Positions 10,887-54,406 of a stretch of 64,000 bases of DNA are shown here, in pieces. Under the pieces are notes generated by a model. The model did no database searches and had not been told where the DNA came from. It was given only the letters and a program-made list of their open reading frames with translations. Position 1 is the stretch's first letter; every line of letters begins with the position of its first letter. The translations under genes and the position numbers were made by a program. Source of the stretch: an uncultured Gammaproteobacteria bacterium (GTDB lineage: Bacteria > Pseudomonadota > Gammaproteobacteria > SZUA-140); NCBI GenBank assembly GCA_947258425.1, contig CAMYIG010000001.1:866-64865 (forward strand), in the 5' to 3' direction.

Positions 10887-11537
10887 ATGATTAAGGCGCT
10901 TTTTCCCTCACAAGTTGTCACCGTCACGGCAACGCCTGCCATGTGGGATGGCAAACTCTACCCCGAAGAGGCCGCTTTCATCCAGAAAGCGGTCATTAAA
11001 CGGAGACGCGAATTCACTGCTGGTAGACTATGTGCAAAAGCGGCGTTAAAAGCATTGGGGGTCACCGGCTTTCCAGTGCTGTCAGGGGGAGAGCGTGAAC
11101 CACTCTGGCCACCCGGCATCACCGGTAGCATCTCCCATTGCGATGACTATTGCGGAGTCGCACTGGCGCGTCAAGCAACGCTCACAAGCATTGGGCTAGA
11201 CATTGAAACCATTAGACCGTTAGACGACGACCTCGAAGCGATGATCTGCACACCGCAGGAAATAACACGCGCTAACCTATCTCCACCACCCTCAGGCAGC
11301 AATTGGCAAAAATTTATATTCAGTGCCAAAGAGTCTGTCTATAAATCACTGTTTCCAGTCACGCGAATTTACCTGGATTTTCAAGACCTCGACATAACCT
11401 TCGACAGTGACAGGTTGCAATTTTCAGCCACTCTGCTCACCCAGCTTCCAACAGAATATAACCTGCCAGACACCCTGACTGGCCACTTCAGGTACAACGA
11501 AAGTCACATCTTTACCGGAATTTCACTATCCCAATAA
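10887..11537 (+). CDS. 4'-phosphopantetheinyl transferase (Sfp/EntD type)
   Basis: EFTAGRLCAKAA, GSISHCDDY, GLDIETI and FSAKESVYK motifs of EntD/Sfp PPTases. It is adjacent to the NRPS genes. Confidence 0.85.
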   Translation: MIKALFPSQVVTVTATPAMWDGKLYPEEAAFIQKAVIKRRREFTAGRLCAKAALKALGVTGFPVLSGGEREPLWPPGITGSISHCDDYCGVALARQATLTSIGLDIETIRPLDDDLEAMICTPQEITRANLSPPPSGSNWQKFIFSAKESVYKSLFPVTRIYLDFQDLDITFDSDRLQFSATLLTQLPTEYNLPDTLTGHFRYNESHIFTGISLSQ

Positions 11538-11539
11538 AC

Positions 11540-12142
11540 CTAATATTTACCCAGAATAAGCCGCGCCTCACCCAGTAACATTGAGGGGTCATCCGCTGAT
11601 ACCGCTTTATAGACAGCCATTACATCCACATAATAAGTATTCCCAATCCCCCCTGAGCATGGCGGCAAATAACCGCCTACATCACCGCGATCGCTTCGGT
11701 GAAGTGCCTCAACATAAACGCCTTCCGGCAGGGCAGTGGTCTCAGCCGGAACAGAAGGGAACACAATGGAAGTCGTATCATTCGCCAGCGACATTCCTAT
11801 AACGCCATGGCCACCATTCAGCATCGGCTCGTAAGTTAAATCCCCAAATGCGAGCAGCACAGCATTTGCCTGTAATGGAATGTCAGAAATTAAGAGTGAA
11901 GGACTAGCCCCGCTGCCACCAAAATTGCGGCACTGCTGACCGTCTGGCACCGAGACCCCATCCCATTCTGAATCTGTGAAAGCGACCGCCAGTTGTGCGA
12001 CCTGTTCAGCTGGCGGGTAGGCACTCAATGGCAACTCAGGTTTGGCATCACGTTTAACGTAGAAAATAATGCCGACAAGCAGCCCTATAAAAATGATCGT
12101 GGACAGCAGGTATATCAGTTTATATGACTTATTAATATGCAT
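11540..12142 (-). CDS. Hypothetical membrane-anchored protein (N-terminal TM, periplasmic domain)
   Basis: 200-aa ORF with an N-terminal hydrophobic helix. I found no recognisable motif. It converges on the PPTase gene with a 2-nt gap. Confidence 0.4.
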   Translation of the reverse strand: MHINKSYKLIYLLSTIIFIGLLVGIIFYVKRDAKPELPLSAYPPAEQVAQLAVAFTDSEWDGVSVPDGQQCRNFGGSGASPSLLISDIPLQANAVLLAFGDLTYEPMLNGGHGVIGMSLANDTTSIVFPSVPAETTALPEGVYVEALHRSDRGDVGGYLPPCSGGIGNTYYVDVMAVYKAVSADDPSMLLGEARLILGKY

Positions 12143-12169
12143 TTAACCAACCCGGGGAGCTCTCAAACC

Positions 12170-13009
12170 TTAGTCTCTATTTAATTCGCGCGCATAAGCT
12201 TGCGCCATCCAGCCACTAATAGTCTCAATTAACTTTTCTTTATCTTTTCTCAGGATATAGGTGTGGTCTGATTCCGGAAAATAATTAACCTGTAGCTGGT
12301 CATTAAAATTCACGGCGCTGAACATATCCTTAAATTGTCCGGCATAATTATAGTCCTCATGGCCGCCACTGTAGACATACAACAGGTTTACTTTGCGCTC
12401 AACCAACTCGCGCAACTCTGCCTCGGTCTGTTGCTTTGGGGGTAATACCCAGAAGTAATCATCCTGACCTGGTCCATCGTCGACACCATCCCCTGAGGGT
12501 GAAATTAGACGTTTAATTCGGTTAAACCATCCACTCAACGAAAACAGACGGGCGCCATAGCGGCGCATCAGAAATGCAGGGGTACGATATGCGTAGCCGT
12601 CAAGAAAAATGGCACCGACCACTCGAGGGTCAATCACAGCCCCCTTATGCGCATTGGCAGCGCCGGTACATAACCCAAACAGGATGAACTTTTTGACGCC
12701 GTATTTACTCGTAAAGAAATCCATTGCAGCCTGAATATCACCAATGATCTGTTCTTCATAAGCACGCGTATCTTTATGCTTCTGGCTATCACCAATCCCA
12801 GATAGATCGAACCGAAAGGATCGCACACCCTGCACTGCTAAACGACGGGCTAATTCAACATGTAACCTAAAGGGGCCGACTCGATGGAGTAAGCCTGCAT
12901 TGAGCATAATAACGGCAGGCAACGTATCGTTAGCGACGGCCTCATCCACTTCGGTCGCAATGCCAACGAGGTCTTTATCCTGCCCAAAAGTAAATACGCG
13001 CTCCATCAC
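12170..13009 (-). CDS. Alpha/beta hydrolase-fold protein with a Cys nucleophile (candidate XrtA-associated hydrolase 1/2 type; possible acyl/peptidyl transferase)
   Basis: FRFDLSGIGDS loop; nucleophile elbow FILFGLCTGA (GxCxG, Cys where Ser is usual); C-terminal ESDHTY His. Its 4-nt overlap with the upstream gene indicates coupling. Confidence 0.7.
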   Translation of the reverse strand: MMERVFTFGQDKDLVGIATEVDEAVANDTLPAVIMLNAGLLHRVGPFRLHVELARRLAVQGVRSFRFDLSGIGDSQKHKDTRAYEEQIIGDIQAAMDFFTSKYGVKKFILFGLCTGAANAHKGAVIDPRVVGAIFLDGYAYRTPAFLMRRYGARLFSLSGWFNRIKRLISPSGDGVDDGPGQDDYFWVLPPKQQTEAELRELVERKVNLLYVYSGGHEDYNYAGQFKDMFSAVNFNDQLQVNYFPESDHTYILRKDKEKLIETISGWMAQAYARELNRD

Positions 13010-13788
13010 TTAGCACCCTCCGAAAGCATCATCACAATATCCTGCAATAATGTACTGAGTAGTAGTGCTGATTCGAGTTCTGATAACGCATCCCAATTGC
13101 CAGCGTCATCAATCACGCGGTATTCGACATCGGCACTCTGTAAACAATCGTAAAGCGCTTGATACTCGTCTTTAGCATCAGAACCTACTATAAATACCCG
13201 CTTTGCTTTCGCTAAAAAATCTTTTTTCAGATCTAATGCTTCAATCTCAGAACACATTTCCTCAGAAAATGAAAAACCCAACAGTTCATTTTCGCCTTCG
13301 CCCTGCCGAGGTACGCTAAAACGATCAGGGTCAGCCAACATCTGCTGATGCATAGACTTTTGTGACGCGATGTAGTCTCGTCCACTGACCACGGGATCCC
13401 AGAGCACGAGCTCTTCAATATTCAAAGACTCTATTGAGGACGCAATCACAGCCCCCAGGCGCAACCCCACTAATGACACTCGCGTATTGCCCGACAGGCT
13501 CTTTAACTCTTCCACCGCCATCGAGACATCTTCGCAGCTTTGTGTCAGACGCCACTCTTCTGACGAGCCAGATGAATCACCCGTTCCATAGTAATCAAAT
13601 CGAAGCACATGAAAACCGGCCTTCGCCAGCAGGTCGGCCAGGCGATTAAACATTTTAAATGACCGCATGTATTCCTGGCCGAATGGATAGCAAAGCACAA
13701 CACTCGTATCTCGTAAGTCACGAGATCTTGGCGGGTGATAGATGCCAAACAGCTGCTTATTGGAAGCGCCAAAAAAGAATGGATTCAT
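13006..13788 (-). CDS. Alpha/beta hydrolase-fold protein, apparently nucleophile-less (pseudo-hydrolase?)
   Basis: LRFDYYGTGDSSG loop; the expected nucleophile elbow reads SLVGLRLGAV, with Arg in the Ser position; no obvious C-terminal catalytic His. ATGA overlap with the downstream hydrolase gene. Confidence 0.65.
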   Translation of the reverse strand: MNPFFFGASNKQLFGIYHPPRSRDLRDTSVVLCYPFGQEYMRSFKMFNRLADLLAKAGFHVLRFDYYGTGDSSGSSEEWRLTQSCEDVSMAVEELKSLSGNTRVSLVGLRLGAVIASSIESLNIEELVLWDPVVSGRDYIASQKSMHQQMLADPDRFSVPRQGEGENELLGFSFSEEMCSEIEALDLKKDFLAKAKRVFIVGSDAKDEYQALYDCLQSADVEYRVIDDAGNWDALSELESALLLSTLLQDIVMMLSEGAK

Positions 13789-13929
13789 TTTTAAATCTCA
13801 AACGCCAAAAAGAAAGTGAGGTGCCACTTATAAAAACCTAAAATAGCACTCATCATAAAAAACCATTATAAGCATAAATACTGTTATCCCGAAACTGACC
13901 TATCATCAAGCATTCAAAAACAAGCACAT

Positions 13930-16900
13930 CTATTTATTGAGCAACCTATTTTTAATTTTATTAAAAAAACCGGGAGATGCCGCAGCTTTTCGCTCAACGT
14001 TCGCTGACGAATCGACCGATCGTTGTTGTTGCCCCCCTGTGTCCTGTATATCAGGCTTACTGTCCACATCAGGAAGCGAATGCGTTGCCGCAATGGCTCC
14101 CAGCGACTCCATCAATAAAACCCTTGGTGAAATCACAACCGCGGTCTCTTTCCGAATGCGTTCAATCACCTTCATCGACAACAATGAGTGCCCACCCAGA
14201 TCAAAAAAATTATCGTGCACACTCACTCGTTCAATACCCAGTGCTTCACACCACACGGTAGCAAGGTATTTTTCTGTCCCTGTTTCAGGGGAGACATACT
14301 CATCATTTTCATAACTATCACCAAAGGGCGCTGGTAAACGTTTCCGATCTAATTTACCGTTCGGTGTCACCGGAAAACCGTCCATTTCAACGATGTGCTG
14401 AGGCACCATATATTCGGGTAACAGGGCACGCAAGTGCGTCCTTATTTCTGTCACTGTGGCGCCTTCGCCTCGCTTATAAATAAGATAGGCCACCAGGCGA
14501 TGATCACCAGGACGATTTTCCCAGACGTTCACTACAGCTCGCTCAATGGCATCATGTTCGCTGAGCGCAGACTCAATCTCACCCAGCTCTATTCTAAAGC
14601 CTCGCACCTTTACCTGATTATCAATACGTCGCATGTACTCAACATTACCATCATCGTGATAGAACGCGAGGTCACCTGTGCGATAGAGTCGACTATTTTC
14701 ATCAAATGGATTTGGAACAAAACGCTCTGCCGTCAATTCTGGGCGATTCAGATAATCGCGCGCAAGGCCAGCGCCACCAATATAAATCTCACCCGGGACA
14801 CCAACAGGCACAGGAAGGAGATGCTCATCAAGCAGATAAATCTGCGTGTTTTCGATCGGTCGACCGATCAATACTGTTGCCTCATCCGCATCACGTTTCA
14901 CTTGATAACGCATCGACCATACTGTCGTTTCTGTCGGGCCATAGAGATTCCATAACTCATCGCATTTTTCAACAAGTTGGCTTGCCAGTTCACGCGGCAT
15001 TGCTTCACCACCGCATAATACCTTCAGGCCTGATGTGCCCTGCCAATCTGATTCCAGTAGTAAACGCCAGGTAATCGGGGTTGCCTGCATAACAGTGATA
15101 TTTTCACTGGCGATAAGCGCCAGTAGACGGGTGCCATCAGAAGCCGCATCACGACTTGCGATGACCGTTGTAGCACCGGTCGTCAGTGGCAAATAGAGTT
15201 CAAGTACTGCAATATCAAAAGAGATAGTGGTCACAGCAAGCAGACGATCAACTTCTGTCAAACCTGGCGCACGCCGCATCGCACAAAGAAAGTTGACCAC
15301 GGCACGGTGCGGCAGCGTCACTCCCTTGGGCTTTCCGGTTGAACCGGATGTATAAATCACGTAAGCAAGATCATCAGATTGACCTTGCTTTAGCGGGTTT
15401 CGATCATCTTCTGCAGCAATCTTCGACCAGTCACTATCGATAAAGACGGTGCGCCCCGCATAACCCGTCAGACGTTCTTTTAACGCCGCCTGAATCACCA
15501 CTAACGGGGCCTGACTATCGCTCAACATATATGCCAGACGTTCTGTTGGATACGCAGGATCAAGCGGCACGTAAGCGCCCCCTGCTTTCAAAATGCCCAA
15601 CAACCCCACCATCATATCCAGTGAGCGCTCAACACATATGCCGATTAGTTGGCCGGGCTCGACACCTGCTTTAATTAAATAATGCGCTAGCTGGTTTGCT
15701 CGCTTATTTAGTTCGGCATAACTTAAATGCTTATCCTCAAAAACGCATGCGGATTTATCGGGAAAACGTTCAACTTGCGCCTCGAAGAGCTCATGCAGCT
15801 TGCTTTCAGCAGGAAACACTACGTTTGTGTTGTTCCACTCATTAATAATAAGTGACCTCTGCTCATCATCAAGTAACGACAGTGTTGCCAATTTTGCATC
15901 AGGTTGCTCAACAACCCGCATGAGCAGCACCTCAAACAGTTTAACCAAACGTTCAATGGTGTGTGCCTCGAATATATCAGCATTATATGCTAGTGCACCT
16001 GAAATTCCATCCGCGCTATCAGACAACATTAAATCAAGGTCAAAATGAGCAGTACCTCTTTCAAATTGATATTCACTCACTTCCACGCCAGACAAAGGAA
16101 AGTTATCGCACAAGGTTTCATTATGAAGCATAAACATCACCTGAAACATTGAGGTATGATTCAATGCTCGATGATGAGGAATCTTCTCCAGAATACTTTC
16201 GAACGGAAGATCCTGATGCGAAAAACAATCGACAGTAGACTCAGCAACATGCTCGACAATATCTCTAAACGTTGAGTCTGATGAAAACTCTGTACGCATC
16301 ACCAGATTATTAGAAAAATCCCCGAACATACTATCTAACTCTGGTCGGCTGCGGACCGTCGGTGACATACCCGTTAAAATATCTTCCTGGTTAGTATAGC
16401 GATACAGCAGACACTGGAATGCAGATAACAGCGACATAAATAAAGTCGAACCTAACGTTCCGCTTAATATTTTAAGTTGCTGGGAAAGCGTCTTCGGCAA
16501 TAAAAACCGATGGGTCCTACCCTTAAATGACATCACTCTTGGCCGCGGATGATCAGTCGGTAGATCAAGCACCGTGTTCGCATCCTGTAGATAGGCTTTC
16601 CAGTACTCCAGCTGGTTATTCACCTCATTAGACGCCAGCCAGTACTTTTCCCATAATGCAAAGTCACGGTACTGCGCAATGAAATTATCACCAGCCCCAT
16701 CGCCTACAGGGTTAGAGCCATCCGTTTTATGCGCGTTATAAGTAGTACTTATCTCGTTAACAAGTAACCGTACAGAAAGACCATCCATTGCGAAATGATT
16801 CGTTGTCATGATGAACACATGCTCATCTTCCGCCAACTGAATAACCAACACCCGTAAGTTAATATCATTGGTAAGATCAAACGGCGTACTAATTTCAGCA

Positions 16901-17325
16901 TTCACCGTTTCGAGCAGTTGACGTTCTTGCGCCTCAGAGGAGATAGCCTTCAAATCATCAACGACCATGCTAAACAGCGTCGATGGCAACAACTTCTGAT
17001 AAAGTTCATCCTCGCCCTCTAAACAGGCAGTTCGTAACACTTCATGACGTTGTACTACCTGCTGAAGACTTTTCTCGAGAATTGTAAGATCTAACTCACC
17101 CTTGAGTCGCACTATAAAAGATTCATTATAAGCAGAGCTTGCAGGATCCATCTGATAGATAAACCAGAAACGTCGTTGCGCTGATGACAAAGGCACCATT
17201 ACATCTTCAGCAACACGTGGCAGCGGTAATTGTTTCAATCCAATCTCGATGTCATCCAGCATTACGTCAAATAATTCGAGCTGATCTGAAGAGAGCGCAT
17301 CCAGCGCTTGATATACATCCTTCAT
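13930..17325 (-). CDS. NRPS module C-A-T with predicted Gly specificity; no TE domain
   Basis: C-domain core TNHFAMDGLS (HHxxxDG variant). A-domain cores LSYAELN.., YVIYTSGSTGKPKGV, NLYGPTETT, YRTGDL, GRIDNQVKVRGFRIELGEIE, NGKLDRK. Stachelhaus positions read by eye against GrsA give D-I-L-Q-L-G-L-V-W-K, close to the Gly code DILQLGLIWK. PCP FFDLGGHSL. A ~60-aa Ser/Gln-rich tail follows, with no thioesterase. ATGA overlap with the upstream NRPS gene. Confidence 0.9.
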   Translation of the reverse strand: MKDVYQALDALSSDQLELFDVMLDDIEIGLKQLPLPRVAEDVMVPLSSAQRRFWFIYQMDPASSAYNESFIVRLKGELDLTILEKSLQQVVQRHEVLRTACLEGEDELYQKLLPSTLFSMVVDDLKAISSEAQERQLLETVNAEISTPFDLTNDINLRVLVIQLAEDEHVFIMTTNHFAMDGLSVRLLVNEISTTYNAHKTDGSNPVGDGAGDNFIAQYRDFALWEKYWLASNEVNNQLEYWKAYLQDANTVLDLPTDHPRPRVMSFKGRTHRFLLPKTLSQQLKILSGTLGSTLFMSLLSAFQCLLYRYTNQEDILTGMSPTVRSRPELDSMFGDFSNNLVMRTEFSSDSTFRDIVEHVAESTVDCFSHQDLPFESILEKIPHHRALNHTSMFQVMFMLHNETLCDNFPLSGVEVSEYQFERGTAHFDLDLMLSDSADGISGALAYNADIFEAHTIERLVKLFEVLLMRVVEQPDAKLATLSLLDDEQRSLIINEWNNTNVVFPAESKLHELFEAQVERFPDKSACVFEDKHLSYAELNKRANQLAHYLIKAGVEPGQLIGICVERSLDMMVGLLGILKAGGAYVPLDPAYPTERLAYMLSDSQAPLVVIQAALKERLTGYAGRTVFIDSDWSKIAAEDDRNPLKQGQSDDLAYVIYTSGSTGKPKGVTLPHRAVVNFLCAMRRAPGLTEVDRLLAVTTISFDIAVLELYLPLTTGATTVIASRDAASDGTRLLALIASENITVMQATPITWRLLLESDWQGTSGLKVLCGGEAMPRELASQLVEKCDELWNLYGPTETTVWSMRYQVKRDADEATVLIGRPIENTQIYLLDEHLLPVPVGVPGEIYIGGAGLARDYLNRPELTAERFVPNPFDENSRLYRTGDLAFYHDDGNVEYMRRIDNQVKVRGFRIELGEIESALSEHDAIERAVVNVWENRPGDHRLVAYLIYKRGEGATVTEIRTHLRALLPEYMVPQHIVEMDGFPVTPNGKLDRKRLPAPFGDSYENDEYVSPETGTEKYLATVWCEALGIERVSVHDNFFDLGGHSLLSMKVIERIRKETAVVISPRVLLMESLGAIAATHSLPDVDSKPDIQDTGGQQQRSVDSSANVERKAAASPGFFNKIKNRLLNK

Positions 17326-21503: not shown

Positions 21504-21641
21504 ATGCTATTAATTTTTTTATTGAATACTTTTTTAGCTTAATACCATCATCATAATCATCAGTTAAATACAGGATTTAAACCGAATACAACGACAGCGA
21601 TTATCACAATCAACATGCAAAAGTGAGGATAATATTCTTTA

Positions 21642-24600
21642 TCATTCGTCTTCAAGCTCACCCAATAGCGCAAGCAACTCATCTTCGTTTACATTCTCCA
21701 GCATCATCTGTTCAATCTTGCTGGAAAAATCGACCAATCGAGGCGAAAGAAAGATCGCTTGAAGTGGAATATCAATCGCAAAGTCCTGTCGGATGCGTGT
21801 AATCAACTGCACCGCGATCAACGAATGCCCGCCAATCTCGAAGAAATTATCGTACAACCCCACCTGCTTGAGCCCCAGTAACGCCTGTAAAATAGTAGCG
21901 ACCTGAATCTCAACTTCGCTAGCAGGTGCGACATATTCTGCCTGAGTATCAATATTCCCTTGCTCCGGCACTGGGAGTTTTTTACGATTAATTTTTCCAT
22001 TCGGTAATAATGGCAATCCCGCTAGCACGACGTAATTTACGGGCACCATAAATTCAGGTAAATGTTGTCCCAGATAGTTGCGTAGCGCATTGATATTGAT
22101 GTCAGTGCCTGTGTCTGGCACCACATACGCAACAAGCTTTTTATTCCCGGGCTCATCTTCTCGCAGTAGCACAAGCGCGTCATTCACTTCGGTATTCTCT
22201 AACAGAAGCTTCTCGATCTCACCCAGCTCAATCCGATAGCCATGTAGCTTGACCTGATGGTCGATGCGCCCCATGAACTCCAGCCGCCCATCACGACCCA
22301 TGCAGACCAGGTCGCCCGTTCGATACATACGGTCATTTAAATCACCACTCACACTGTTTTTTACAAACTTTTCAGCAGTGAGCTCGGGGCGATTCAGATA
22401 ACCCCGTACCACGCCGTCACCGGCAATTACCAGTTCACCCGGCACACCCAGCGGCTGAAGTTGCATATTGTTATCCAGCACATAGGTCTGTGTATTCGCA
22501 ATCGGGGAGCCCAATGGAATATCTGCGTCTGCCTCATGTAAATGATACGTGGTTGACCAGATCGTCGTCTCAGTCGGCCCGTACATATTCGTCACTTGAC
22601 CTTTCACCAATGAACGCAGCTTTACTGCCAACTGACTCGAAAAGGCTTCACCGCCCACCATCATATGAGACAAGCATCCCAGTGCGTGATGCATCTGCTG
22701 GTCTGATGCCAGCATATTGGCCATCGTTGGCGTACATTGAAAATGCGTGACGTTGTGTCGCTCGATAAGTGCAGCGATGGAATAATCCTTATCCGCCCCA
22801 TCAGACTGCGGCGGGTTAGCCGCCTCCTTCACCTGGCTTAGATAATGGAGGTGGGCCAGTACTTTTTCGGTCTCGATGCCAAAATCGATCAGACAACCGA
22901 TCTCATCCACCCCTATTTCCTTGAGTTGATCTGCACGTTCAACGCATCGTTCAACATTCCCAAAGAGCCCGCTGTGGTTATAATAGCGATCAAACGCGAA
23001 GGCCAGCAGGCTATCTCTATCCTCATCAGAAATATTATTAAAAAACTCATCCATGGTCTGCTCTGTACCCTCGGATACCTGCTTCCACGCCGGGCTATGC
23101 CACGCGGCCGCTTTCACCAGAGAAACTGCACTTTCCAGATAGTCCATCATCGGCTGCTGTGCAACATCACGCACCTGCGCCTCATCATCGCCGATGAAGG
23201 TGTGTAGCATTAATGTGACTTGCCCATCACCTGCATGACCGGCCTCTTTCCAGGCGCTACGATAGAGCCGAATATTCTCTGCCACCTTTTCAATATCCTG
23301 TCCGAGCAGGTGCGTCAGCACATGTGCACCAATTGATCCAGCCTGTCGGAAGGTGTCAGGATTCACCGCAACCGTTACCCAAATTGGTAACTTTTCCTGA
23401 ATAGGTCTAGGGTAGGTGCGGACTTCAACATCGCCTTTCGGCCCCGCAAACGTGACAGCCTCACCTTTCCATAATTGCTGGATAGTCTCAACGGAATCAA
23501 ACATGATCTCTTTTGCGCGCGCATGATTCTCAGGCTTGATCACAAAATCATTCGGCTGCCAGCCGGGCGCAATCGAAAGCCCCGCACGGCCATTGGAAAG
23601 GTTATCCACCACCGACCACTCTTCTGCGATGCGAATAGGGCTATGCAGTGGCACCACACAACTGCCCGCACGAATACCGATGTTTTGCGTAGTGGCCGCC
23701 AGTGCGGCACCGATGACTGAGGGGTTAGGGTACAGTCCGCCAAAGGCACCGAAATGTCGCTCAGGTGTCCATAGCGCTTCGAAGCCATTTTTGTCGGCGT
23801 ATTTAGCGCTTTCGAGCAGTAACTTATACTTATCTGCCTCGCGAGATGCCTCGTCTTTTACAAAATTCCAGTAAAAAAGACTAAAGGCAATCGGCTGAGC
23901 GGGGTATCGTGTCGCCACTTCCCCAGCCTTCAGGTCATCACCGGCGTAGAGCACCAGTTTAAACCCTCGACAGAGACTCCAGAAAATCTCAAGCACGGAG
24001 ATATCAAACGATATACTGGTCACAGCCAACCACACACCCGGGGAATCATGCGCAATGCGCTCATCCATGCCTGCGAAGAAATTCACCACATTACGGTGTT
24101 CGACCATCACCCCTTTGGGACGCCCGGTCGAGCCCGAAGTATATATCACATAAGCCAGACTCGATGACGCGCACGGGATTTCAAGATTATTATCGCTCTC
24201 GACATCGATTCGACTTCGCTCAAGATCAACCTGCAACAACTTTTCACCGGGCAGATAATTTGCGTAATCAGACTGGGTAACTACCAACGCCAGCTCTGCG
24301 TCATCGGCCATATAAACCAAACGATCTTTGGGATAAGTGGGATCCAGTGGCACATAGGCCGCGCCTGTTTTCCACGTTGCCAATAGCGCGATCACCATAT
24401 CAAAGGAACGATCCAACATCACACCGACCAGATCATCTACACCCACGCCATGTTTTACCAGATAGTGCGCCAGCTGATTTGCGCGAGCATTCAACTCATG
24501 ATAACTGAGGCTGTCATTGTGAAATGCCAGCGCGGATGTATCCGGTGTAGACACTACTTGTTGTTCAAACAGCTGAAATACACATCGATTTTCAGGGTAT

Positions 24601-27600
24601 GCAGTGGCAGTACCCGTGGCTATTTTTAATATGGCCTGTTGCTCTTCTCTCGGTAAAATCGGCACACTCGCTACCGGCGTATTGAGATCTTCAACCATGA
24701 CCTCCAGCACTTTTAGATAGTGCGCCAGCATACTTTCCATACGCGCTTGCGAGAAAAGGTCGGTGCAATATTCAAGTACCGCCTCCAGTCCAGAGGGACG
24801 CTCCCACATATAAAGGGTCATGTCATATTTTGAAGTACCACTATGAGTGTCCAGCTGTATCGTCCGCATGCCGGGAAGATTCATCACCGATTCATGCTCA
24901 AGCGCATCAAAAATAAACATCACCTGAAAAACCGGTGCATAACGTAAATCACGCTCTGGATTGAGCGCCTCAACCAATTTATCGAATGGCAATCCCTGAT
25001 GCGCAAAATCTGCAATGGTCGTCTTACGCACGCGGGCGATCAACTCTCTCAGTGAAACATCGCCTGATAGATCACAACATAAAGGGAGTGAGTTCATAAA
25101 CAGTCCGAGCATCGCTTCGGTCTCGAGCGGCTCGCGGTTCGCGACCGCAGTACCGACCACAAAATTCTCCTGTGATGAGTAGCGGTGGAGCAGTAATTGA
25201 TAGGCCGCCAACAGCAGCATAAATAGACTGGAACGCTCCTGTTGCGCAATGATATTAAGTCGCTGATGTAGCGCAGACGGTATCTTCAGGGTCACAGAAC
25301 TGCCATTAAATTGCTGCACGGACGAGCGTGGGAAATCAGTTGGTAACTCCAGTACCGGCGGCATCTGCTTTAACCGAGGCAGCCAGTAATCAATCTCCGC
25401 CTGAAGACGATCATCGGCCATATAAGTACTTTGCCAGGCAGTATAGTCAGCGTAATCGGCTGAGAGCTGAGGTAATTGCGGTTCAACGCCACTCACCATC
25501 GCACCATATACCTGCTCGAGCTCGCTTGCCAGCAGACGCACTGACCAGCCGTCAAACACGATGTGATGGATCACAAACGTCATCACATATTTTGATGGTG
25601 CCAGTTTGATAATATTGCAGCGCCACAACGGTCCCTGTTCGATATCGAACAGAGTGTGCGCCTCATTTGTGATCAACTTATCTATTTCCGCCTGCGGATC
25701 TGACGCCTGACTCAAGTCATGCATGAATACCGGCAAGTCGACCTGACCCGCTATCACCTGTGTCGGCGCGCCCCCTTTCACTGAAAACGTGGTACGCATT
25801 GAAGCGTGGCGCTTAACGATTACCGCCATCGCTTGTTTAAAGAGCTCGGGATCAAAATCACCATCGATCTTAAATGCATAAGGGATGTTATAGAGTGCGC
25901 CCACCTGCTCCATTTGCTCAAAAAACCAGATGCGACTCTGCATAAATGAAAGCGGGATATCGCCAGCATGTTCTTTTTTGTGTAGCACTGGTTGTGTCAC
26001 GGCCACATCCGTTACTGCCGATGACGAGATATATTTCGCAAGTTCAGCAATGGTGGGGGAGTTAAAGAGTGCAGTAATAGAAAGCTGCACACCGAACTCA
26101 CGCCGCAACCGGGCGACCATCTGCGCGGCCAGCAGGGAGTGGCCACCGGCATGAAAAAAATTAGCGTTCACACCTACTCTCTCTACACCCAAAAGGGCCT
26201 GCCATATCGCTGCGATCCTGGTTTCTGTATCGCCTGTCGGTGCAACATAATCACGATCTTCGAACAGGTCCGCGTACCGAGGATGGGGTAGCGCCTTTTT
26301 ATCCACCTTGCCATTCGCCGTTAAAGGAATCTCCGCAACAAAGACAAAATGCTGTGGAACCATATGGACAGGCAGACCATTGGCGACATAATCACGTAGT
26401 GCATCGACCTGTAGGCTGTCAGACTTTTTAACCACATACGCCACCAGGCGCTGGTCACCCACACCCAATTCAATGACATTCAATGCAACCTGCTTAACCT
26501 CGGGGTACGCAATGAGAAGCGATTCGATCTCACCAAGTTCTATTCTAAAGCCGCGCAATTGCACCTGGTCGTCAATTCGCCCTAGGTATTCCAGTTCATT
26601 ATTGGAGAGGCGGCGCGCTAAATCGCCAGTACGATACAGTCGGATGACAGTGCCGTTTTCTAACGTGTGGTTAATAAAACGTTCTGCGGTCAAGTCAGGC
26701 CGATTCAAATAGCCCTTCGATAGACCATCGCCGGCAACATACAGCTCCCCTTTCTGCCCATCGATAACAGGCTTCATCGCGTCATCAAAAAGATAGAGTT
26801 TCAGGTCTGGAATGGCCCGGCCAATCAGACTCCCCTTCGGGTGATCCACATCATCACGAGAAATGGGACGATACGTCACGTGCACGGTTGTTTCGGTGAT
26901 ACCGTACATATTAATCAATTGCGGGGCGTTGTCTCCGTGACGGGAAATCCACGGTTTTAAAGCGGCCAGGTTGAGCGCTTCACCGCCGAAGATCACATAA
27001 CGTAACGCCAGTGTATCTGCTGTGTGTCGCTCTTCATCCACCAGCTGTAGCTGCTGGAATGCTGAGGGGGTTTGATTCAGGACGGTGACCCCTTGCGATA
27101 TCAGCAGGGTATAAAACAATTCCGGGGTGCGTGCTGTTTCCGCTGACACAATCACCAGGCTGCCACCGTAGCTCAGCGCGCCCCAAATCTCCCACACAGA
27201 AAAATCAAAGGCATATGAGTGAAACAGGGTCCAGACATCATCCACACCAAAATCAAACCAGTGGTTAGTGGAATCAAAAAGCCGGGATACATTTTTATGA
27301 GTTACCTGCACTCCTTTGGGTGCCCCGGTAGAGCCCGAGGTATAGATGACATAGGCAAGGTGCTCGTCAGTCACCGCTACAGCAGGATTTTCTACTGTCG
27401 ATGAACCCTTCTCCATCGCATCAATCAATAAAATTTTAGCCGAACAGGCGGGTAAATTTTCGACCAGCGTCTGCTGCGTTACCAGTACAGCAGGTTTGGC
27501 ATCATTCAGGGTGTAGGCAATACGGGAAGCGGGGTAATTCGGGTCAACCGGCACATAGGCAGCGCCTGCCTTTAAAATACCCAAAATACCGATCACTGTA

Positions 27601-27815
27601 TCAAATGAGCGCGAAACACATAACCCAACCAGTGAACCCGGCGTGACCTCCTGTGTGATAAGCGCATTGGCGAGCTGGTTTGCCTGAGCATTAAGCTCAC
27701 CATAGGTAAGCTGGCGATCCTCCCAGATCAAGGCCGTCTTATCAGGATTACGTTGCGCATTGAGTTCAAAGCGCTGGTAACAGGTCGAAAGAGTAGTCAC
27801 ACAATCACCATTCAC
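21642..27815 (-). CDS. NRPS A(Thr)-T-C-A(Gly)[MOx]-T: loading module plus an elongation module whose A domain is interrupted by a luciferase-like monooxygenase
   Basis: A1 cores YVIYTSGSTGAPKGV, FDFS, NMYGITETT, YRTGDL, GRIDDQVQLRGFRIELGEIE, NGKVDKK; its Stachelhaus residues D-F-W-N-I-G-M-V-H-K match the Thr code exactly. T1 FFHAGGHSL. C-domain HHIVFDGWS. A2 cores YVIYTSGSTGRPKGV and FDIS, then a ~375-aa insert starting IAFSLFYWNF (bacterial luciferase-like monooxygenase), then NMYGPTETT, YRTGDL, GRIDHQVKLHGYRIELGEIE, NGKINRK. The A2 code D-I-L-Q-M-G-M-I-W-K is near the Gly code. T2 FFEIGGHSL. The acidic C-terminal tail EDELLALLGELEDE is a possible docking partner. Confidence 0.9.
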   Translation of the reverse strand: MNGDCVTTLSTCYQRFELNAQRNPDKTALIWEDRQLTYGELNAQANQLANALITQEVTPGSLVGLCVSRSFDTVIGILGILKAGAAYVPVDPNYPASRIAYTLNDAKPAVLVTQQTLVENLPACSAKILLIDAMEKGSSTVENPAVAVTDEHLAYVIYTSGSTGAPKGVQVTHKNVSRLFDSTNHWFDFGVDDVWTLFHSYAFDFSVWEIWGALSYGGSLVIVSAETARTPELFYTLLISQGVTVLNQTPSAFQQLQLVDEERHTADTLALRYVIFGGEALNLAALKPWISRHGDNAPQLINMYGITETTVHVTYRPISRDDVDHPKGSLIGRAIPDLKLYLFDDAMKPVIDGQKGELYVAGDGLSKGYLNRPDLTAERFINHTLENGTVIRLYRTGDLARRLSNNELEYLGRIDDQVQLRGFRIELGEIESLLIAYPEVKQVALNVIELGVGDQRLVAYVVKKSDSLQVDALRDYVANGLPVHMVPQHFVFVAEIPLTANGKVDKKALPHPRYADLFEDRDYVAPTGDTETRIAAIWQALLGVERVGVNANFFHAGGHSLLAAQMVARLRREFGVQLSITALFNSPTIAELAKYISSSAVTDVAVTQPVLHKKEHAGDIPLSFMQSRIWFFEQMEQVGALYNIPYAFKIDGDFDPELFKQAMAVIVKRHASMRTTFSVKGGAPTQVIAGQVDLPVFMHDLSQASDPQAEIDKLITNEAHTLFDIEQGPLWRCNIIKLAPSKYVMTFVIHHIVFDGWSVRLLASELEQVYGAMVSGVEPQLPQLSADYADYTAWQSTYMADDRLQAEIDYWLPRLKQMPPVLELPTDFPRSSVQQFNGSSVTLKIPSALHQRLNIIAQQERSSLFMLLLAAYQLLLHRYSSQENFVVGTAVANREPLETEAMLGLFMNSLPLCCDLSGDVSLRELIARVRKTTIADFAHQGLPFDKLVEALNPERDLRYAPVFQVMFIFDALEHESVMNLPGMRTIQLDTHSGTSKYDMTLYMWERPSGLEAVLEYCTDLFSQARMESMLAHYLKVLEVMVEDLNTPVASVPILPREEQQAILKIATGTATAYPENRCVFQLFEQQVVSTPDTSALAFHNDSLSYHELNARANQLAHYLVKHGVGVDDLVGVMLDRSFDMVIALLATWKTGAAYVPLDPTYPKDRLVYMADDAELALVVTQSDYANYLPGEKLLQVDLERSRIDVESDNNLEIPCASSSLAYVIYTSGSTGRPKGVMVEHRNVVNFFAGMDERIAHDSPGVWLAVTSISFDISVLEIFWSLCRGFKLVLYAGDDLKAGEVATRYPAQPIAFSLFYWNFVKDEASREADKYKLLLESAKYADKNGFEALWTPERHFGAFGGLYPNPSVIGAALAATTQNIGIRAGSCVVPLHSPIRIAEEWSVVDNLSNGRAGLSIAPGWQPNDFVIKPENHARAKEIMFDSVETIQQLWKGEAVTFAGPKGDVEVRTYPRPIQEKLPIWVTVAVNPDTFRQAGSIGAHVLTHLLGQDIEKVAENIRLYRSAWKEAGHAGDGQVTLMLHTFIGDDEAQVRDVAQQPMMDYLESAVSLVKAAAWHSPAWKQVSEGTEQTMDEFFNNISDEDRDSLLAFAFDRYYNHSGLFGNVERCVERADQLKEIGVDEIGCLIDFGIETEKVLAHLHYLSQVKEAANPPQSDGADKDYSIAALIERHNVTHFQCTPTMANMLASDQQMHHALGCLSHMMVGGEAFSSQLAVKLRSLVKGQVTNMYGPTETTIWSTTYHLHEADADIPLGSPIANTQTYVLDNNMQLQPLGVPGELVIAGDGVVRGYLNRPELTAEKFVKNSVSGDLNDRMYRTGDLVCMGRDGRLEFMGRIDHQVKLHGYRIELGEIEKLLLENTEVNDALVLLREDEPGNKKLVAYVVPDTGTDININALRNYLGQHLPEFMVPVNYVVLAGLPLLPNGKINRKKLPVPEQGNIDTQAEYVAPASEVEIQVATILQALLGLKQVGLYDNFFEIGGHSLIAVQLITRIRQDFAIDIPLQAIFLSPRLVDFSSKIEQMMLENVNEDELLALLGELEDE

Positions 27816-27882
27816 ATTTTTATATTAGCATTGATTTCAGCCTGTTTAAGTTCAGACCCTGTTGGACAACAAATAACATTAA

Positions 27883-28617
27883 TTAGTGCGGTGAGTTACT
27901 AGACCGCCAGAATGTCACGGCCTGTGACATCCCCTCAAATACATGAAATCCCGGATATTGTTCAACATTCCATGTATCATATTTTTCTAGCCAACCGACC
28001 GATGCAAGTACTTTATCGTGCACTGGTGTGACATACACCAGTCGAAAAGCACGAGGATTCTTATCCAGCGAGCAGCGAATCGCCGCAAGTACTTCTAACA
28101 CTGTAATTTCCCCAAAGGGGTTGAACATAAACACGACGGTTACATCGTCAAAATCATACGCCTGAGCCAACCCTTCACGAAGCTCGATGTCAGCCTTCCG
28201 CCCGCGCAATTTCTGAGCATTTAAACGCGCAATGGGTAAAAAACTGCTGTTATATTCAAGCCCAATCACGCGCCCAACGTCTGTTCGCGCAGCGACGCTG
28301 AGTGTTCGCCCTTTACCACATCCCAGATCGACAAAGACATCTCGAGCATCTAAAGCGAGATGTTTCATGATGTCATGCAACAACAGGTACGGCGTTGCTT
28401 CATAACGAAAGCCGTCCTGTGGCATACCGATATCAACGATTGCCTCGGTATTGATCCCTAAATAGCGCTCCCAAAACTTGTCATGGAGTCTTATTTCATA
28501 GGGTGCAGCCCCAATTGCCTCACCCTTTCTAAAAATATAACGCGCCAGAAGAACATCTTTGTTTTTGATAATGAATCTGGGTAACTTCACAAAAAGAAGT
28601 TTCAGCTGGTTTAACAA
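27883..28617 (-). CDS. Class I SAM-dependent methyltransferase
   Basis: Motif I VDLGCGKGRTL and a Rossmann-type fold order. 244 aa. Immediately upstream of the NRPS operon. Confidence 0.7.
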   Translation of the reverse strand: MLNQLKLLFVKLPRFIIKNKDVLLARYIFRKGEAIGAAPYEIRLHDKFWERYLGINTEAIVDIGMPQDGFRYEATPYLLLHDIMKHLALDARDVFVDLGCGKGRTLSVAARTDVGRVIGLEYNSSFLPIARLNAQKLRGRKADIELREGLAQAYDFDDVTVVFMFNPFGEITVLEVLAAIRCSLDKNPRAFRLVYVTPVHDKVLASVGWLEKYDTWNVEQYPGFHVFEGMSQAVTFWRSSNSPH

Positions 28618-29254
28618 TGCTTCCGCCTTATTTTTTCTGTTTTATAATTAACATGGTCGCATGATCACAGCCAGAAGTGGACATCACAATACCCATCTTT
28701 AAATAACTAAAATGACTCAAAATTGATTTCACCTCGGATAAACATTACTTTATGACACAGCAACGTGGCCCCAAAACTGGATAAAGTCACAAACATTCCC
28801 CATCATTCTATCGTCGACTCACTCATAAAGCTTTAAATATAGTGGGACAACAATTAAACTCACTACCCTTTATCTACAGTCAACGACAGTGAGGAGATAT
28901 CCCTGCCTCTGAACAATCGTAACCCATTATTCTCATGATGAATATAGGGGAATTACCTCTGGTGATTAAACTTAATTAAATCTACTGCAAACCAGTTAAA
29001 ACTGATTATTCGGATTCACAATATGATATGTACTGCCACGCTTCGCAACACATGAACAAACGATCATAAGATACCTGCCCATTTAAATAACTACTGCAAT
29101 ATATAATCTCACCAAATCCGGGGCAACGACCCCTAATTGATTATACCGCGATATCCCACTTTTTAATCAATACGATGCCCGATGAGTTAAGTAATTACCA
29201 TCTCAAGACATGCTATTATTGGCCGCTGACTAAACTGGTCTTAACCTTACAATA

Positions 29255-30481
29255 ATGATAAACACTCAGGCACCAATGGCACATATCCCAACACACGAAT
29301 TCACTGTAGAGATATTGCGTTCAACAAAAGAGATCGAACAAATCACACCAGAATGGCAGGATTTTATTGCGACGCAGATCCGAGAAAAAAATATCCATCA
29401 AGACCCTTACGTAATACAGTCAAGATTAGCGACAGTTGAAGGCGTCACTGTATATAAACCACTGATTATAACCCTTCGAAATAATCATCAGATTATCGCT
29501 ATAGCACCTTTCTATAGCAATAAATCTAAATTTGACCTTAAGCTGGGTATCGTCAAGCTATTCTCTCTCCCAATCAATAAATTGCAGTTATTCGGTGATA
29601 GCGTGCTCATTCACAAAGATTATCAGCCAGCTGAGTGCCTCGATAAGATATTTGATACGCTAAGGGCGTTTAACAATGATTTTGATATTATTTCTATCAA
29701 TAGCACTCACGTGCCAGGAACCCTCTGGGACTATTTTGAAAGTGAGCAATGTTGCAAACAGAATATAAAGTTAGTGCCTGCCAGCAAAAAAATGGAGGTC
29801 AACAGGCAAATAAAAATGGCTGATAGCCTGGATGATTACCTGGGCGCGATGAAGAAAAAGACCCGCTACAATCTCAAACGCACTGCAAAAAAGCTTTCTG
29901 AACTCGATGACGGGACAATTAAGACCATTGAAGTCAGACAGCCAGATGACGTAAAGCAGTTTCTCCAGGACCTCGACACTATCTATAATTGCACATGGCA
30001 ATCAGGTACATTTGGTAAAAAAATAAGAAACACTGCTGCTGGCATCGCTTTCTTTGAAAATATAGCGGCTAAAGGATGGCTGAGATCTTATATACTCAAA
30101 AGTGACAAGACGCCTATTGCCTTCATCCTTGGCTATCAATACAACGGTATTTATTACTATGATGAGATCGGGCATGACCTCAGCTGGCGTAAAGAGAACC
30201 CGGGGAATGCACTTAATCTACACATGATGGAATTTCTTCATGCAAGCGATACCCCTGATATCGTCGATTTTGGGTATGGAGAAAATGACTATAAACGCAT
30301 CTTCGGTAACCTGGAGTTTGATGCTCGAAAAATATACCTTATAAAAACCTCACCCAATTACGGTGCCTGCTTGCTCCGCGCCCACCAACTGCTCGATTCA
30401 ATATACCTTACGCTACATACTATGGCCGTTAAGTATAAACTTGACGACTATTTGAGAAAGCTCACCAAAAAAAGAGCCTGA
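29255..30481 (+). CDS. FemAB/CelD-like GNAT-fold acyl(aminoacyl)transferase (candidate PEP-CTERM-associated FemAB-family protein)
   Basis: The C-terminal half (..WLRSYILKSDKTPIAFILGYQYNGIYYYDEIGHDLSWRKENPGNALNLHMMEFLH..) resembles BioF2/CelD/FemAB-type Acetyltransf_6 domains. 408 aa. This is recognition by eye, not a computed score. Confidence 0.5.
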   Translation: MINTQAPMAHIPTHEFTVEILRSTKEIEQITPEWQDFIATQIREKNIHQDPYVIQSRLATVEGVTVYKPLIITLRNNHQIIAIAPFYSNKSKFDLKLGIVKLFSLPINKLQLFGDSVLIHKDYQPAECLDKIFDTLRAFNNDFDIISINSTHVPGTLWDYFESEQCCKQNIKLVPASKKMEVNRQIKMADSLDDYLGAMKKKTRYNLKRTAKKLSELDDGTIKTIEVRQPDDVKQFLQDLDTIYNCTWQSGTFGKKIRNTAAGIAFFENIAAKGWLRSYILKSDKTPIAFILGYQYNGIYYYDEIGHDLSWRKENPGNALNLHMMEFLHASDTPDIVDFGYGENDYKRIFGNLEFDARKIYLIKTSPNYGACLLRAHQLLDSIYLTLHTMAVKYKLDDYLRKLTKKRA

Positions 30482-36070: not shown

Positions 36071-36073
36071 GGG

Positions 36074-37243: not shown

Positions 37244-37244
37244 C

Positions 37245-40493: not shown

Positions 40494-40535
40494 AAAATTT
40501 CAGACTTAATGCACCATCGCTCACTGTTCATCCCT

Positions 40536-42387: not shown

Positions 42388-42390
42388 ACA

Positions 42391-44792: not shown

Positions 44793-44829
44793 TGAATAGT
44801 ACCCCGCGCATCCATTCCAACCATCACCA

Positions 44830-46293: not shown

Positions 46294-46294
46294 A

Positions 46295-48130: not shown

Positions 48131-48176
48131 ACCCTATCCTATAAACAATTATTTACCAGAAAGCATTAGCTTTAAA

Positions 48177-50842: not shown

Positions 50843-50845
50843 TTC

Positions 50846-53292: not shown

Positions 53293-53341
53293 CTTAACTT
53301 GCCTTTAGTATTAATATTAATGTACAGCCGTAAAATAGGCA

Positions 53342-54367: not shown

Positions 54368-54406
54368 TAGAGTAAAGTAGATGTAAAATAATCGAGGATT
54401 TATCAA

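Follow-up and report, generated by a model that had tools for sequence, protein, structure and literature searches.

We analysed a 64,000-nucleotide stretch of DNA, referred to here as the window, from an uncultured gammaproteobacterium (contig CAMYIG010000001.1 of assembly GCA_947258425.1, positions 866 to 64,865). The window harbors an exopolysaccharide (EPS) locus of the exosortase A (XrtA)/PEP-CTERM type, and between conserved genes of this locus lies an operon for a nonribosomal peptide synthetase (NRPS) that is followed by genes for two proteins of the α/β hydrolase fold, which we term hydr2-like and hydr1-like. We conclude with high confidence that the assembly line is off-loaded by this pair, which is part of the NRPS unit and not a resident fixture of XrtA loci. 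Tentatively, and with a confidence a little short of even, we favor the combined reading that the pair would hand the peptide to a polysaccharide instead of releasing it freely. What appears to be new here is that an EPS locus carries, as cargo, an NRPS whose release module is unusual and made of two proteins; there is a small chance that this points to something categorically new.

A four-module NRPS without a release domain

Judged from its sequence, the operon appears to encode a functional four-module NRPS that lacks a thioesterase (TE). It comprises genes for a methyltransferase, NRPS1, NRPS2, NRPS3, the hydr2-like and hydr1-like proteins and a small membrane protein, and a two-gene unit for a glucose/sorbosone dehydrogenase-like (GSDH-like) protein and a phosphopantetheinyl transferase (PPTase) is convergent to it (Table 1). 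An earlier reading of the same DNA, made from the letters alone and called here the sequence-only reading, had proposed the architecture A-T-C-A[MOx]-T, Cy-A-T-Ox, C-A-T, in which A, T, C, Cy, Ox and MOx stand for adenylation, thiolation, condensation, heterocyclization, oxidase and monooxygenase domains; our Pfam and motif analyses agree with it, coordinates included. The PPTase that it had classed as Sfp-type contains 4PPT_N and ACPS domains.

The C, A and T modules are colinear with intact core motifs, and the Ser is kept in all four T motifs (GGHSL, GANSL). In module order the Stachelhaus codes are DFWNIGMVHK (Thr), DILQMGMIWK (Gly), DMYDFGVLWK (Cys-like, non-canonical) and DILQLGLVWK (Gly). 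The second A domain is split by a luciferase-like monooxygenase (PF00296, 170.8 bits; residues 1314–1638 of NRPS1, nucleotides 22902-23876), which is inserted between core motifs A4 (residue 1270) and A5 (residue 1743). The predicted product on the last T domain should be Thr-Gly-(Cys/Ser-derived azole)-Gly. In the peptide Thr-Gly*-thiazole-Gly put forward by the sequence-only reading, Thr and both Gly residues are borne out by the codes, whereas the thiazole corresponds to a code that is only Cys-like; because DMYDFGVLWK differs from the canonical Cys code DLYNLSLIWK, the azole may be either a thiazole or an oxazole. Module 1 (A-T) lacks a starter C domain, which would leave the N-terminal amine of the product free.

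Azole-forming Cy-A-T-Ox modules are known from assembly lines of the epothilone, bleomycin and myxothiazol type. Module 3 resembles them in its Cy domain, which carries the DxxxxD motif, and in its Ox domain, which is of the FMN nitroreductase type, and differs from them in its A domain code. A counterpart to module 2 is found in MtaG and MelG of myxothiazol and melithiazol synthesis, which are described as terminal-amide-forming C-A-MOx-A-T-TE modules (PMC11411415). In these, as in NRPS1, a Gly A domain is split by a luciferase-like monooxygenase, whereas in the window the module stands inside the line, as the second of four, lacks a TE and precedes the Cy module. If the same chemistry applied in the window, α-hydroxylation and dealkylation of the MtaG/MelG type would cut off a Thr-amide and leave a glyoxylyl starter.

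Pfam searches of the NRPS revealed no release domain of the TE, reductase or terminal C type, and NRPS3 stops about 50 residues beyond its T domain. The place of a release domain after NRPS3 is occupied by the hydrolase pair.

The hydr2-like and hydr1-like proteins

The start of the hydr1-like gene overlaps the stop of the hydr2-like gene by 4 nucleotides. The sequence-only reading had taken the two proteins for the hydrolase pair hydr1/hydr2 of XrtA systems. Profile searches returned hydr1_PEP (TIGR03100) and hydr2_PEP (TIGR03101) as their best matches; both scores, however, fall below the curated cut-offs (Table 1), and the window hydrolases are relatives of TIGR03100 and TIGR03101, not members by the curated test.

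In the hydr2-like family the Arg of a G-L-R-x-G motif is invariant (121/121 sequences); in the window protein the elbow reads GLRLG, and Arg109 stands in the place of the nucleophile. Among 79 homologues of the hydr1-like protein, whose window elbow reads GLCTG, the Cys and the His are each present in 79/79 and the Asp/Glu in 74/79. Comparison of the two families with hhalign gave a probability of 99.2%, with R109 aligned to C114 and with no equivalent of the His in the hydr2-like family. By these sequence criteria the two families are paralogues, of which the hydr2-like one is predicted to be catalytically dead and the hydr1-like one to have an intact triad. The notion that both are Cys enzymes was rejected on the invariant Arg of the hydr2-like family, and the earlier description of the two as Cys-nucleophile hydrolases holds for the hydr1-like protein but not for its partner.

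AlphaFold models show an α/β hydrolase fold in both proteins, with predicted local distance difference test scores of 89.6 (hydr2-like) and 88.6 (hydr1-like). In the PDB, sequence and fold searches with both proteins turned up nothing but generic S33-type esterases and lipases, together with LuxD and DcsB, at TM-scores of 0.55–0.73. The similarity of the pair to LuxD, which cleaves acyl-acyl carrier protein, is weak in sequence and in fold, and predicted structures cannot separate a hydrolase from a transferase. At E ≤ 1e-5 the families comprise 1686 clusters (hydr2-like) and 1328 clusters (hydr1-like), with neither an informative name nor a solved structure among them.

The pair follows NRPS and PKS lines in many phyla

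The family of the pair is present in at least 527 species-level genomes, including Gemmatimonadota, Myxococcota, Kangiellaceae, Acidobacteriota and others. Its neighborhoods were compared in 88 loci, namely 80 genome loci that each span ±10 kb and are the best-scoring of the 527 species genomes, not a random sample, plus 8 further loci. Because domains were detected by blastp and phmmer with queries from the window, all domain counts in these loci are lower bounds.

The hydr2-like and hydr1-like genes are adjacent in 75 of the 80 genome loci. With a single blastp query, a T domain was found upstream on the strand of the pair in at least 61 of the 76 loci with enough upstream sequence, and in at least 48 of the 76 it ends no more than 400 nucleotides before the pair. 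A domains are present in 70, C domains in 58 and MOx domains in 23 of the 88 loci. Across hundreds of species, the pair mainly closes TE-less NRPS or polyketide synthase (PKS) lines, and it usually does so after a Gly module: of the 43 loci with an upstream A domain, 30, spread over many phyla, have a Gly-type code (DILQLGMVWK or one close to it) in the last A domain before the hydr2-like gene (L003, L011, L024, L027, L041 and L046 are examples), as does window NRPS3. Where it is not Gly, the code is for Ala, resembles one for a basic residue (in Kangiellaceae) or, in a few cases, is another one; terminal Gly seems to be a near-rule for the pair as a release module.

Gene fusions add to this picture. 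Three Kangiellaceae NRPS proteins end in A-T-[hydr2-like], with the elbow GFRFG, which places the predicted dead domain in the position of a TE. Because of this fusion to a T domain, the hydr2-like protein probably docks the carrier protein or its pantetheine arm. In Azospirillum, Mycetohabitans, Cupriavidus and Burkholderia, hydr2 and hydr1 are joined in single proteins of about 600 residues, in which both elbows, Arg and Cys, are kept. The natural fusions point to a putative T-hydr2-hydr1 complex.

In the Kangiellaceae with the fused NRPS gene, a separate set of C-A-T, hydr2-like and hydr1-like genes adjoins it on the opposite strand. In other TE-less relatives, from Gemmatimonadota and Gammaproteobacteria, the line begins with Formyl_trans-A(MOx)-T or C-A(MOx)-T, continues with a PKS and is followed by the pair (L007/L008 1-4209, L030, L031, L054); one may speculate that an N-acyl-Gly hydroxylated and dealkylated by such MOx loading modules would leave a glyoxylyl starter.

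The pair recurs beside polysaccharide and exosortase genes

A polysaccharide-type gene lies within 10 kb of the pair in 27 of the 80 genome loci, with at least two classes of such genes in 16 and three classes in 10. Three Kangiellaceae have a different NRPS, of a single module, and the pair directly beside EpsB_2 and pepcterm_export, with pepcterm_ATPase 8 kb off, and all three score above their cut-offs. In one metagenome-assembled genome the pair lies 3 kb from exosortase W (XrtW; 544.9 bits against a cut-off of 425), and a Gemmatimonas locus has two pairs, one linked to an NRPS/PKS and one to an A-T protein, beside an exosortase. A Variovorax chromid carries on one strand two NRPS genes, a PPTase, hydr2, hydr1, Wza, Wzc, a priming transferase, glycosyltransferases (GTs) and a flippase. 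Thus, an NRPS plus the pair beside XrtA, XrtW or Wza/Wzc genes recurs in at least five independent lineages, and the juxtaposition in the window is no one-off. In polysaccharide loci, the pair is found with three carrier-loading systems: the XrtA ligase and acyl carrier protein (ACP), the Burkholderia Bep/bec genes and NRPSs. The tie between these hydrolases and XrtA systems drawn in the sequence-only reading stands insofar as the pair recurs in polysaccharide and exosortase loci, and fails insofar as the pair is not an XrtA fixture.

A contiguous arrangement of the Kangiellaceae ATPase gene with the NRPS was considered and rejected: a block of tricarboxylic acid cycle genes lies between them, and only EpsB_2 and the exporter directly adjoin. 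A Pfam census of 122 open reading frames (ORFs) that follow the pair has flippase (6), GT4 (5) and GT2 (4) among its most frequent families; CoA-ligase also reaches 6, from the housekeeping sucCD genes of the three Kangiellaceae loci.

The NRPS lies in a variable slot of an XrtA locus

The region had been read from the sequence alone as PEP-CTERM/XrtA machinery, and the named components pass the curated NCBIfam cut-offs, XrtA with 233.9 bits against 208. By these curated tests the locus is an XrtA system, but one without the usual FemAB, amidotransferase and stp companions. Profile searches and blastp found no homologue of TIGR03019 FemAB, the amidotransferase or stp1 in the window, and the window deacetylases stay below curated level (40 bits against a cut-off of 276 for TIGR03006), as does the best match to the glycosyltransferase family stp2 (264.5 against 409). 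The window holds one PEP-CTERM tail (VPEP...RRRNS), and 40 nucleotides 5′ of its gene lies a sigma-54-like TGGCAC-N5-GTGC site with one mismatch (54352-54367, + strand, TGGCACGGTTAGTGCT), which fits control by PrsR. Scans for sigma-70 promoters and terminators at the operon ends gave the same counts as shuffled sequences and were uninformative.

Nucleotides 1-8178 are housekeeping DNA (sodB, a NUDIX gene, a cNMP/rhodanese protein, argD, argF, an ABC ATPase and a cytochrome c). The interval between the XrtA-associated ATPase and the TIGR03016 outer-membrane protein (OMP) measures about 40 kb and has three parts, namely the NRPS unit (9637-28617), a stretch with a GCN5-related N-acetyltransferase (GNAT) and two secreted proteins (29255-34614) and a polysaccharide block (34904-49205). 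The NRPS island and the GT/deacetylase block share one variable slot between conserved core genes. Because relatives with identical flanks have no NRPS, we regard the NRPS as lineage-specific cargo in a hypervariable slot. In relatives L097-L100 XrtA is divergent from PrsT, whereas prsK-prsR-xrtA-prsT are co-linear in the window.

Comparison with known systems

The canonical XrtA type-1 cassette consists of an acyl-CoA ligase (TIGR03098), an ACP, hydrolase 2 (TIGR03101), hydrolase 1 (TIGR03100) and a pyridoxal phosphate (PLP)-dependent decarboxylase (TIGR03099). The sequence-only reading had proposed that the NRPS stands in place of the ligase and ACP, and gene order agrees: a Sphingomonas XrtA cassette runs ACP, hydr2-position ORF, hydr1_PEP, in parallel with T domain, hydr2-like, hydr1-like in the window. 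In that cassette, the ligase and decarboxylase genes are divergent from the ACP-ORF-hydr1_PEP set. Both systems lie inside an XrtA locus, and a Cys nucleophile is found in the PGAP-named hydr1_PEP (GNCDA; one sequence inspected) as in the window protein (GLCTG). They differ in that the window has an NRPS of 4.6 thousand residues instead of ligase plus ACP and has no decarboxylase there, and in that the family of the window pair is a separate one, much larger and found mostly with NRPS/PKS lines. Synteny thus supports the replacement when the canonical cassette is the reference, whereas in the closer relatives L097-L100 the slot is empty or filled with other cargo. The Sphingomonas ORF was considered as a firm canonical example of hydr2 and rejected, the evidence for it being marginal.

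The absence of a ligase or decarboxylase beside the hydrolases, pointed out in the sequence-only reading, extends to the whole 64 kb. Queried with the canonical Sphingomonas proteins by blastp, the window yielded matches of the ligase to NRPS A domains only (27–30% identity) and none of the decarboxylase; stand-alone homologues of the ligase, ACP, PLP decarboxylase, XrtA amidotransferase, stp1 and TIGR03019 were likewise found nowhere in it.

A further relative is the biofilm EPS cluster Bep/bec of Burkholderia (BCAM1330-1350), in which Bcam1334 is annotated as TIGR03100 (PMC3584217). Mutants of this cluster, including the dehydrogenase mutant becG, lose biofilm (PMC5507470), and for Bcam1334 itself the literature offers only a guess, that of a polysaccharide hydrolase (PMC3584217, PMC5507470). 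Given the carrier-loading genes that accompany Bcam1334, this guess looks unlikely. Like the window, this genetically validated EPS cluster combines genes for loading a carrier protein (here ACP, acyl-CoA dehydrogenase and amino acid:[ACP] ligase) with a hydr2-hydr1 module whose elbows again have Arg and Cys (VRAGA ... GICSGA). It differs in that the hydrolase domains are fused (~600 residues), that a ligase resembling aminoacyl-tRNA synthetases (aaRS-like) does the loading and that the cluster is a Wza/Wzc system without exosortase. The fused hydr2-hydr1 gene and a cassette of ACP, acyl-CoA dehydrogenase, aaRS-like amino acid:[ACP] ligase, DUF1839 and GH2 genes are adjacent in Azospirillum, Mycetohabitans and Cupriavidus (loci L090, L091 and L092). 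In B. cenocepacia NZ_CP091013.1 (L102) the fused gene and the cassette lie about 16 kb apart within Bep/bec (2165-8189 and 23907-25706).

Among metabolite genes, the closest precedent for a link with exosortases is that of the N-acyl amino acid synthases (Craig et al. 2011, cited in PMC7293339). There, too, small-molecule genes are physically and probably functionally tied to exosortase loci; the enzyme, however, is a GNAT-like protein of an unrelated family, no carrier-protein line is involved and the products are free lipids. A full-text literature search found no paper that joins exosortase/PEP-CTERM loci with an NRPS, which is in line with the sequence-only reading, to whose author no described XrtA system with an NRPS was known. 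The same search found no paper that characterizes TIGR03098-03101, the annotation of Bcam1334 being the only mention of these families that it returned.

Proposed mechanism and alternative explanations

In the mechanism that we propose, the NRPS would build Thr-Gly-azole-Gly on the last T domain (T4), with the MOx acting in line within the module for the second residue, Gly2. Conservation and the natural fusions suggest that the hydr2-like protein would dock T4 or its pantetheine arm and that the peptidyl group would move to Cys114 of the hydr1-like protein, bound there as a thioester, before its transfer to a nucleophile. From genomic context, this nucleophile would not be water; it may be an amino or hydroxyl group of a cytoplasmic lipid-linked polysaccharide repeat unit or of a sugar precursor. 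The three deacetylases of the cargo block and both hydrolases have no signal peptides and are apparently cytoplasmic, and the deacetylases could expose amines, as NodB does for NodA. In Nod factor synthesis, the NodB deacetylase exposes a sugar amine, which NodA acylates from the acyl carrier protein NodF. The likeness is that of a mechanistic analogue only: NodB-like deacetylases (TIGR04243, 106.6 bits, below cut-off) are encoded in the window alongside a carrier-protein system, but there is no NodA homologue, the proposed transferase is a Cys α/β hydrolase and the donor would be peptidyl, not fatty acyl. The XrtA ligase/ACP/hydr2/hydr1 cassette and Bep/bec would be simpler versions of this scheme, which load a carrier protein and hand the acyl group to a polysaccharide pathway.

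Several observations weigh against a transfer of the peptide to polysaccharide. The acceptor that we prefer is suggested by genomic context alone. The enrichment of polysaccharide genes near the pair was counted without a matched control, and 53 of the 80 genome loci, including all nine Corallococcus loci, have no polysaccharide-type gene within 10 kb. Both hydrolases score at about half of the curated hydr1_PEP and hydr2_PEP cut-offs, with matches that cover the N-terminal halves only. As to the canonical cassette, the hydr2-position ORF of Sphingomonas has SIRGG at the expected spacing by inspection; it is unnamed by PGAP, and the profile of the window family reaches it only at E 0.14. A second sigma-54-like site (13811-13826, - strand, TGGCACCTCACTTTCT, one mismatch) lies 23 nucleotides 5′ of the hydr2-like start codon, in the 141-nucleotide gap after NRPS3, and has a weak -12 element; because the motif total is at chance (2 against 2.56 expected), we do not use these sites as evidence of co-regulation.

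The close relatives speak in the same direction. In three of them (L097-L099), which share the housekeeping flank and have an ATPase 78–85% identical to that of the window, the OMP gene stands directly before the ATPase gene and there is no NRPS; their compact core consists of PrsT, a PEP-CTERM gene, the exporter, chain-length determinant, kinase, OMP and ATPase, and the polysaccharide block at 34904-49205 is likewise missing at this position. In L100, the closest relative by ArgF, the slot holds other cargo, namely a GT4, two toxin-antitoxin pairs, a GT2, a DegT and an Acetyltransf_6 gene. The GC content of the NRPS part (0.43–0.51) exceeds that of the GT block (0.39–0.46), which hints at separate origins, and the NRPS could owe its position to horizontal insertion at a recombination hot spot, with no functional tie.

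A serious rival is an ordinary, horizontally acquired secondary-metabolite cluster that came to lie in a variable, recombination-prone part of the EPS locus and in which the pair would act as a trans thioesterase that frees a small azole peptide (a signal, metal binder or antibiotic) with no tie to polysaccharide. We consider this account possible, at a confidence well below even. In its favor stand the loci without polysaccharide-type genes, the relatives without an NRPS and the GC contrast given above; the pair also serves ordinary NRPS/PKS clusters in hundreds of species, where hydrolysis or cyclization to a free product is the simplest reading. The closest pair in a different context (L003, 59% identity) is accompanied by an NRPS, a PPTase, an aldo-keto reductase, Acyl_transf_3 and a PKS, with no XrtA gene in view, and toxin-antitoxin genes such as those in the slot of L100 are typical of a hot spot. 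Against this account, family scans of the NRPS island found no exporter, regulator or self-resistance gene, and an NRPS with the pair recurs beside XrtA, XrtW or Wza/Wzc genes in several lineages, the single-strand Variovorax array included. Homologous pairs are found, moreover, in EPS clusters without any NRPS, and a TE that simply hydrolyses its substrate does not usually combine an invariant Cys with a dead partner.

A lipid or small amine as acceptor is an unlikely alternative to a polysaccharide; the product would then be a lipopeptide, aminolipid or polyamine conjugate, a surface or membrane factor co-regulated with the EPS and not attached to it. Some related loci do carry genes for a fatty acyl-AMP ligase (FAAL), ACP, ketosynthase, acyltransferase and aminotransferase, or for a PKS, Acyl_transf_3, a GDSL lipase and a sulfotransferase, and in canonical XrtA cassettes ligase and ACP go with a PLP decarboxylase, a potential source of an amine acceptor. 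The window NRPS, however, has no lipid-loading starter C domain or FAAL, and neither a decarboxylase nor a lipid-synthesis gene accompanies it.

We know of no exosortase whose acceptor has been identified. A very unlikely reading is that the peptide, esterified or amidated to the EPS at its C-terminal Gly, presents the free amine at its other end to XrtA, which would join the cleaved PEP-CTERM protein to it much as sortase does with the FemABX pentaglycine. In its favor, module 1 has neither a starter C nor a formylation domain, the FemAB-family gene of canonical XrtA loci is missing from the window and hydr2/hydr1 carrier-loading cassettes accompany exosortases in several lineages, but the idea is pure analogy, most pair loci have no exosortase within 10 kb and close relatives run the same XrtA core without an NRPS. 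Just as doubtful is the most far-reaching version, in which the pair would be a new class of carrier-protein-to-glycan transacylase that grafts Thr-Gly-azole-Gly onto the EPS, after which the peptide amine would accept the PEP-CTERM protein via XrtA in the manner of FemABX and sortase.

Accessory genes and other features of the locus

The GSDH-like gene heads the two-gene + strand unit that it forms with the PPTase gene. GSDH homologues recur a few kb from the hydrolase pair in several Gemmatimonadota loci (L019, L020, L038, L054), and a PPTase gene adjoins the pair in 16 of the 88 loci, including L003, L006 and the Variovorax locus L089. The 200-residue protein encoded at 11540-12142 had no family match at E < 0.01, showed a faint PEBP/YbhB similarity at E ~0.1 and was found only in the same or sister species.

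A metagenome scan with the methyltransferase, aimed at finding the same island elsewhere, returned only homologues of at most 39% identity, none of which adjoins an NRPS. Genes for GT2, DegT, flippase and Acetyltransf_6 proteins surround these homologues; of the 78 families counted in their neighborhoods, the 25 commonest include none of NRPS domains. The GNAT had been taken from the sequence for a FemAB-like XrtA protein. It is not a pepcterm_femAB (TIGR03019) member: a search against that profile gave nothing at E ≤ 10, blastp gave no match to two PGAP-named members and the protein is assigned to Acetyltransf_6 only. It differs from the Acetyltransf_6 gene product encoded beside the ATPase in L100. 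Because homologues of both the methyltransferase and the GNAT occur in polysaccharide loci without NRPS, the two may belong to the EPS genes, and they may form an EPS-modifying gene pair; for the same reason their candidacy as NRPS tailoring enzymes was downgraded. In a metagenomic contig (L106:9824-11707) the two genes are adjacent and co-oriented, near an exosortase and a homologue of the XrtA-type asparagine synthase.

Table 1 Coordinates of the features of the window and of related fusion proteins
Feature	Position	Strand	Basis and remarks
XrtA/PEP-CTERM system-associated ATPase	8334..9332	-	TIGR03015, 363.3 bits against cut-off 324.5; right-hand border of the variable slot, conserved
GSDH-like (PQQ) glucose/sorbosone dehydrogenase-like protein, periplasmic, signal peptide	9637..10866	+	PF07995, 173 bits; N-terminal hydrophobic segment
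Sfp-type 4'-phosphopantetheinyl transferase (PPTase)	10887..11537	+	4PPT_N and ACPS; best NCBIfam matches PptT/Npt/EntD
200-residue membrane-anchored protein, last gene of the NRPS operon	11540..12142	-	One N-terminal transmembrane segment
hydr1-like α/β hydrolase, predicted triad Cys114-His249-Asp137	12170..13009	-	Best match hydr1_PEP (TIGR03100), 81.4 bits against 168.45, profile positions 6-159 of 274
hydr2-like α/β-fold protein, putative pseudo-hydrolase	13006..13788	-	Best match hydr2_PEP (TIGR03101), 103.9 bits against 202.75, profile positions 2-143 of 266
NRPS3, module 4, 1131 residues: C-A(Gly)-T, no TE	13930..17325	-	Pfam; code DILQLGLVWK; C motif NHFAMDG
NRPS2, module 3: Cy-A-T-Ox (predicted azoline formation and oxidation to azole)	17322..21503	-	Pfam, motifs
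NRPS1, modules 1-2, 2057 residues: A(Thr)-T-C-A(Gly, MOx-split)-T	21642..27815	-	Pfam, motifs, codes
Class I S-adenosylmethionine-dependent methyltransferase, generic	27883..28617	-	Methyltransf_25/11; 67 nucleotides upstream of NRPS1, same strand
GNAT, Acetyltransf_6 (FemAB/CelD-like)	29255..30481	+, divergent from NRPS operon	PF13480, 74.3 bits; FemAB_like only E 0.0014
Lipoprotein with four Big_9/cadherin-like tandem repeats	30822-32942	+	No PEP-CTERM tail
Secreted 531-residue protein, signal peptide	33019-34614	+	No Pfam family; 30-bit N-terminal match to pectate-lyase family PelN; no PEP-CTERM tail
Polysaccharide cargo block: four GT4, WecB, three deacetylases, Wzy_C/O-antigen-ligase-like protein, flippase, APH-like protein, transmembrane-anchored protein	34904..49205	-	Family scans
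388-residue transmembrane-anchored protein, no family	34904-36070	-	No PEP-CTERM tail
611-residue protein with only a C-terminal APH-type kinase match	46295-48130	-	No PEP-CTERM tail
XrtA core: TIGR03016 OMP, tyrosine kinase, chain-length determinant, exporter, PrsT, XrtA, PrsR, PrsK, EpsB_2	49295..63927	-	Each above NCBIfam cut-off
TIGR03016 OMP	49295-50842	-	Above NCBIfam cut-off
PEP-CTERM protein	54407-54970	+, inside the span of the - strand core	TIGR02595 sorting-domain model, 27 against 16
XrtA with C-terminal EpsI domain	57340-58929	-	TIGR03109, 233.9 bits against 208
Kangiellaceae A-T-hydr2-like NRPS proteins	L014:2761-6159, L023:2604-6059, L025:2598-6056	-	Arg elbow GFRFG

Significance

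To our knowledge, no role has been established for the XrtA ligase, ACP, hydr1 and hydr2 genes since they were first catalogued. In our comparisons, the hydrolase pair goes with carrier proteins in general, be they loaded by an ANL ligase with its ACP, by an aaRS-like ligase with its ACP or by full NRPS/PKS lines. XrtA loci, in turn, have between the TIGR03016 OMP and the ATPase a slot whose cargo varies much as in capsule loci. For the natural-product field, TE-less lines of at least 500 species gain a candidate for a new release module, one that often follows a terminal Gly module. For the study of EPS and biofilms, the pair suggests that aminoacyl or peptidyl groups assembled on carrier proteins may decorate some exopolysaccharides, and Bcam1334 of Burkholderia offers a genetically tractable case.

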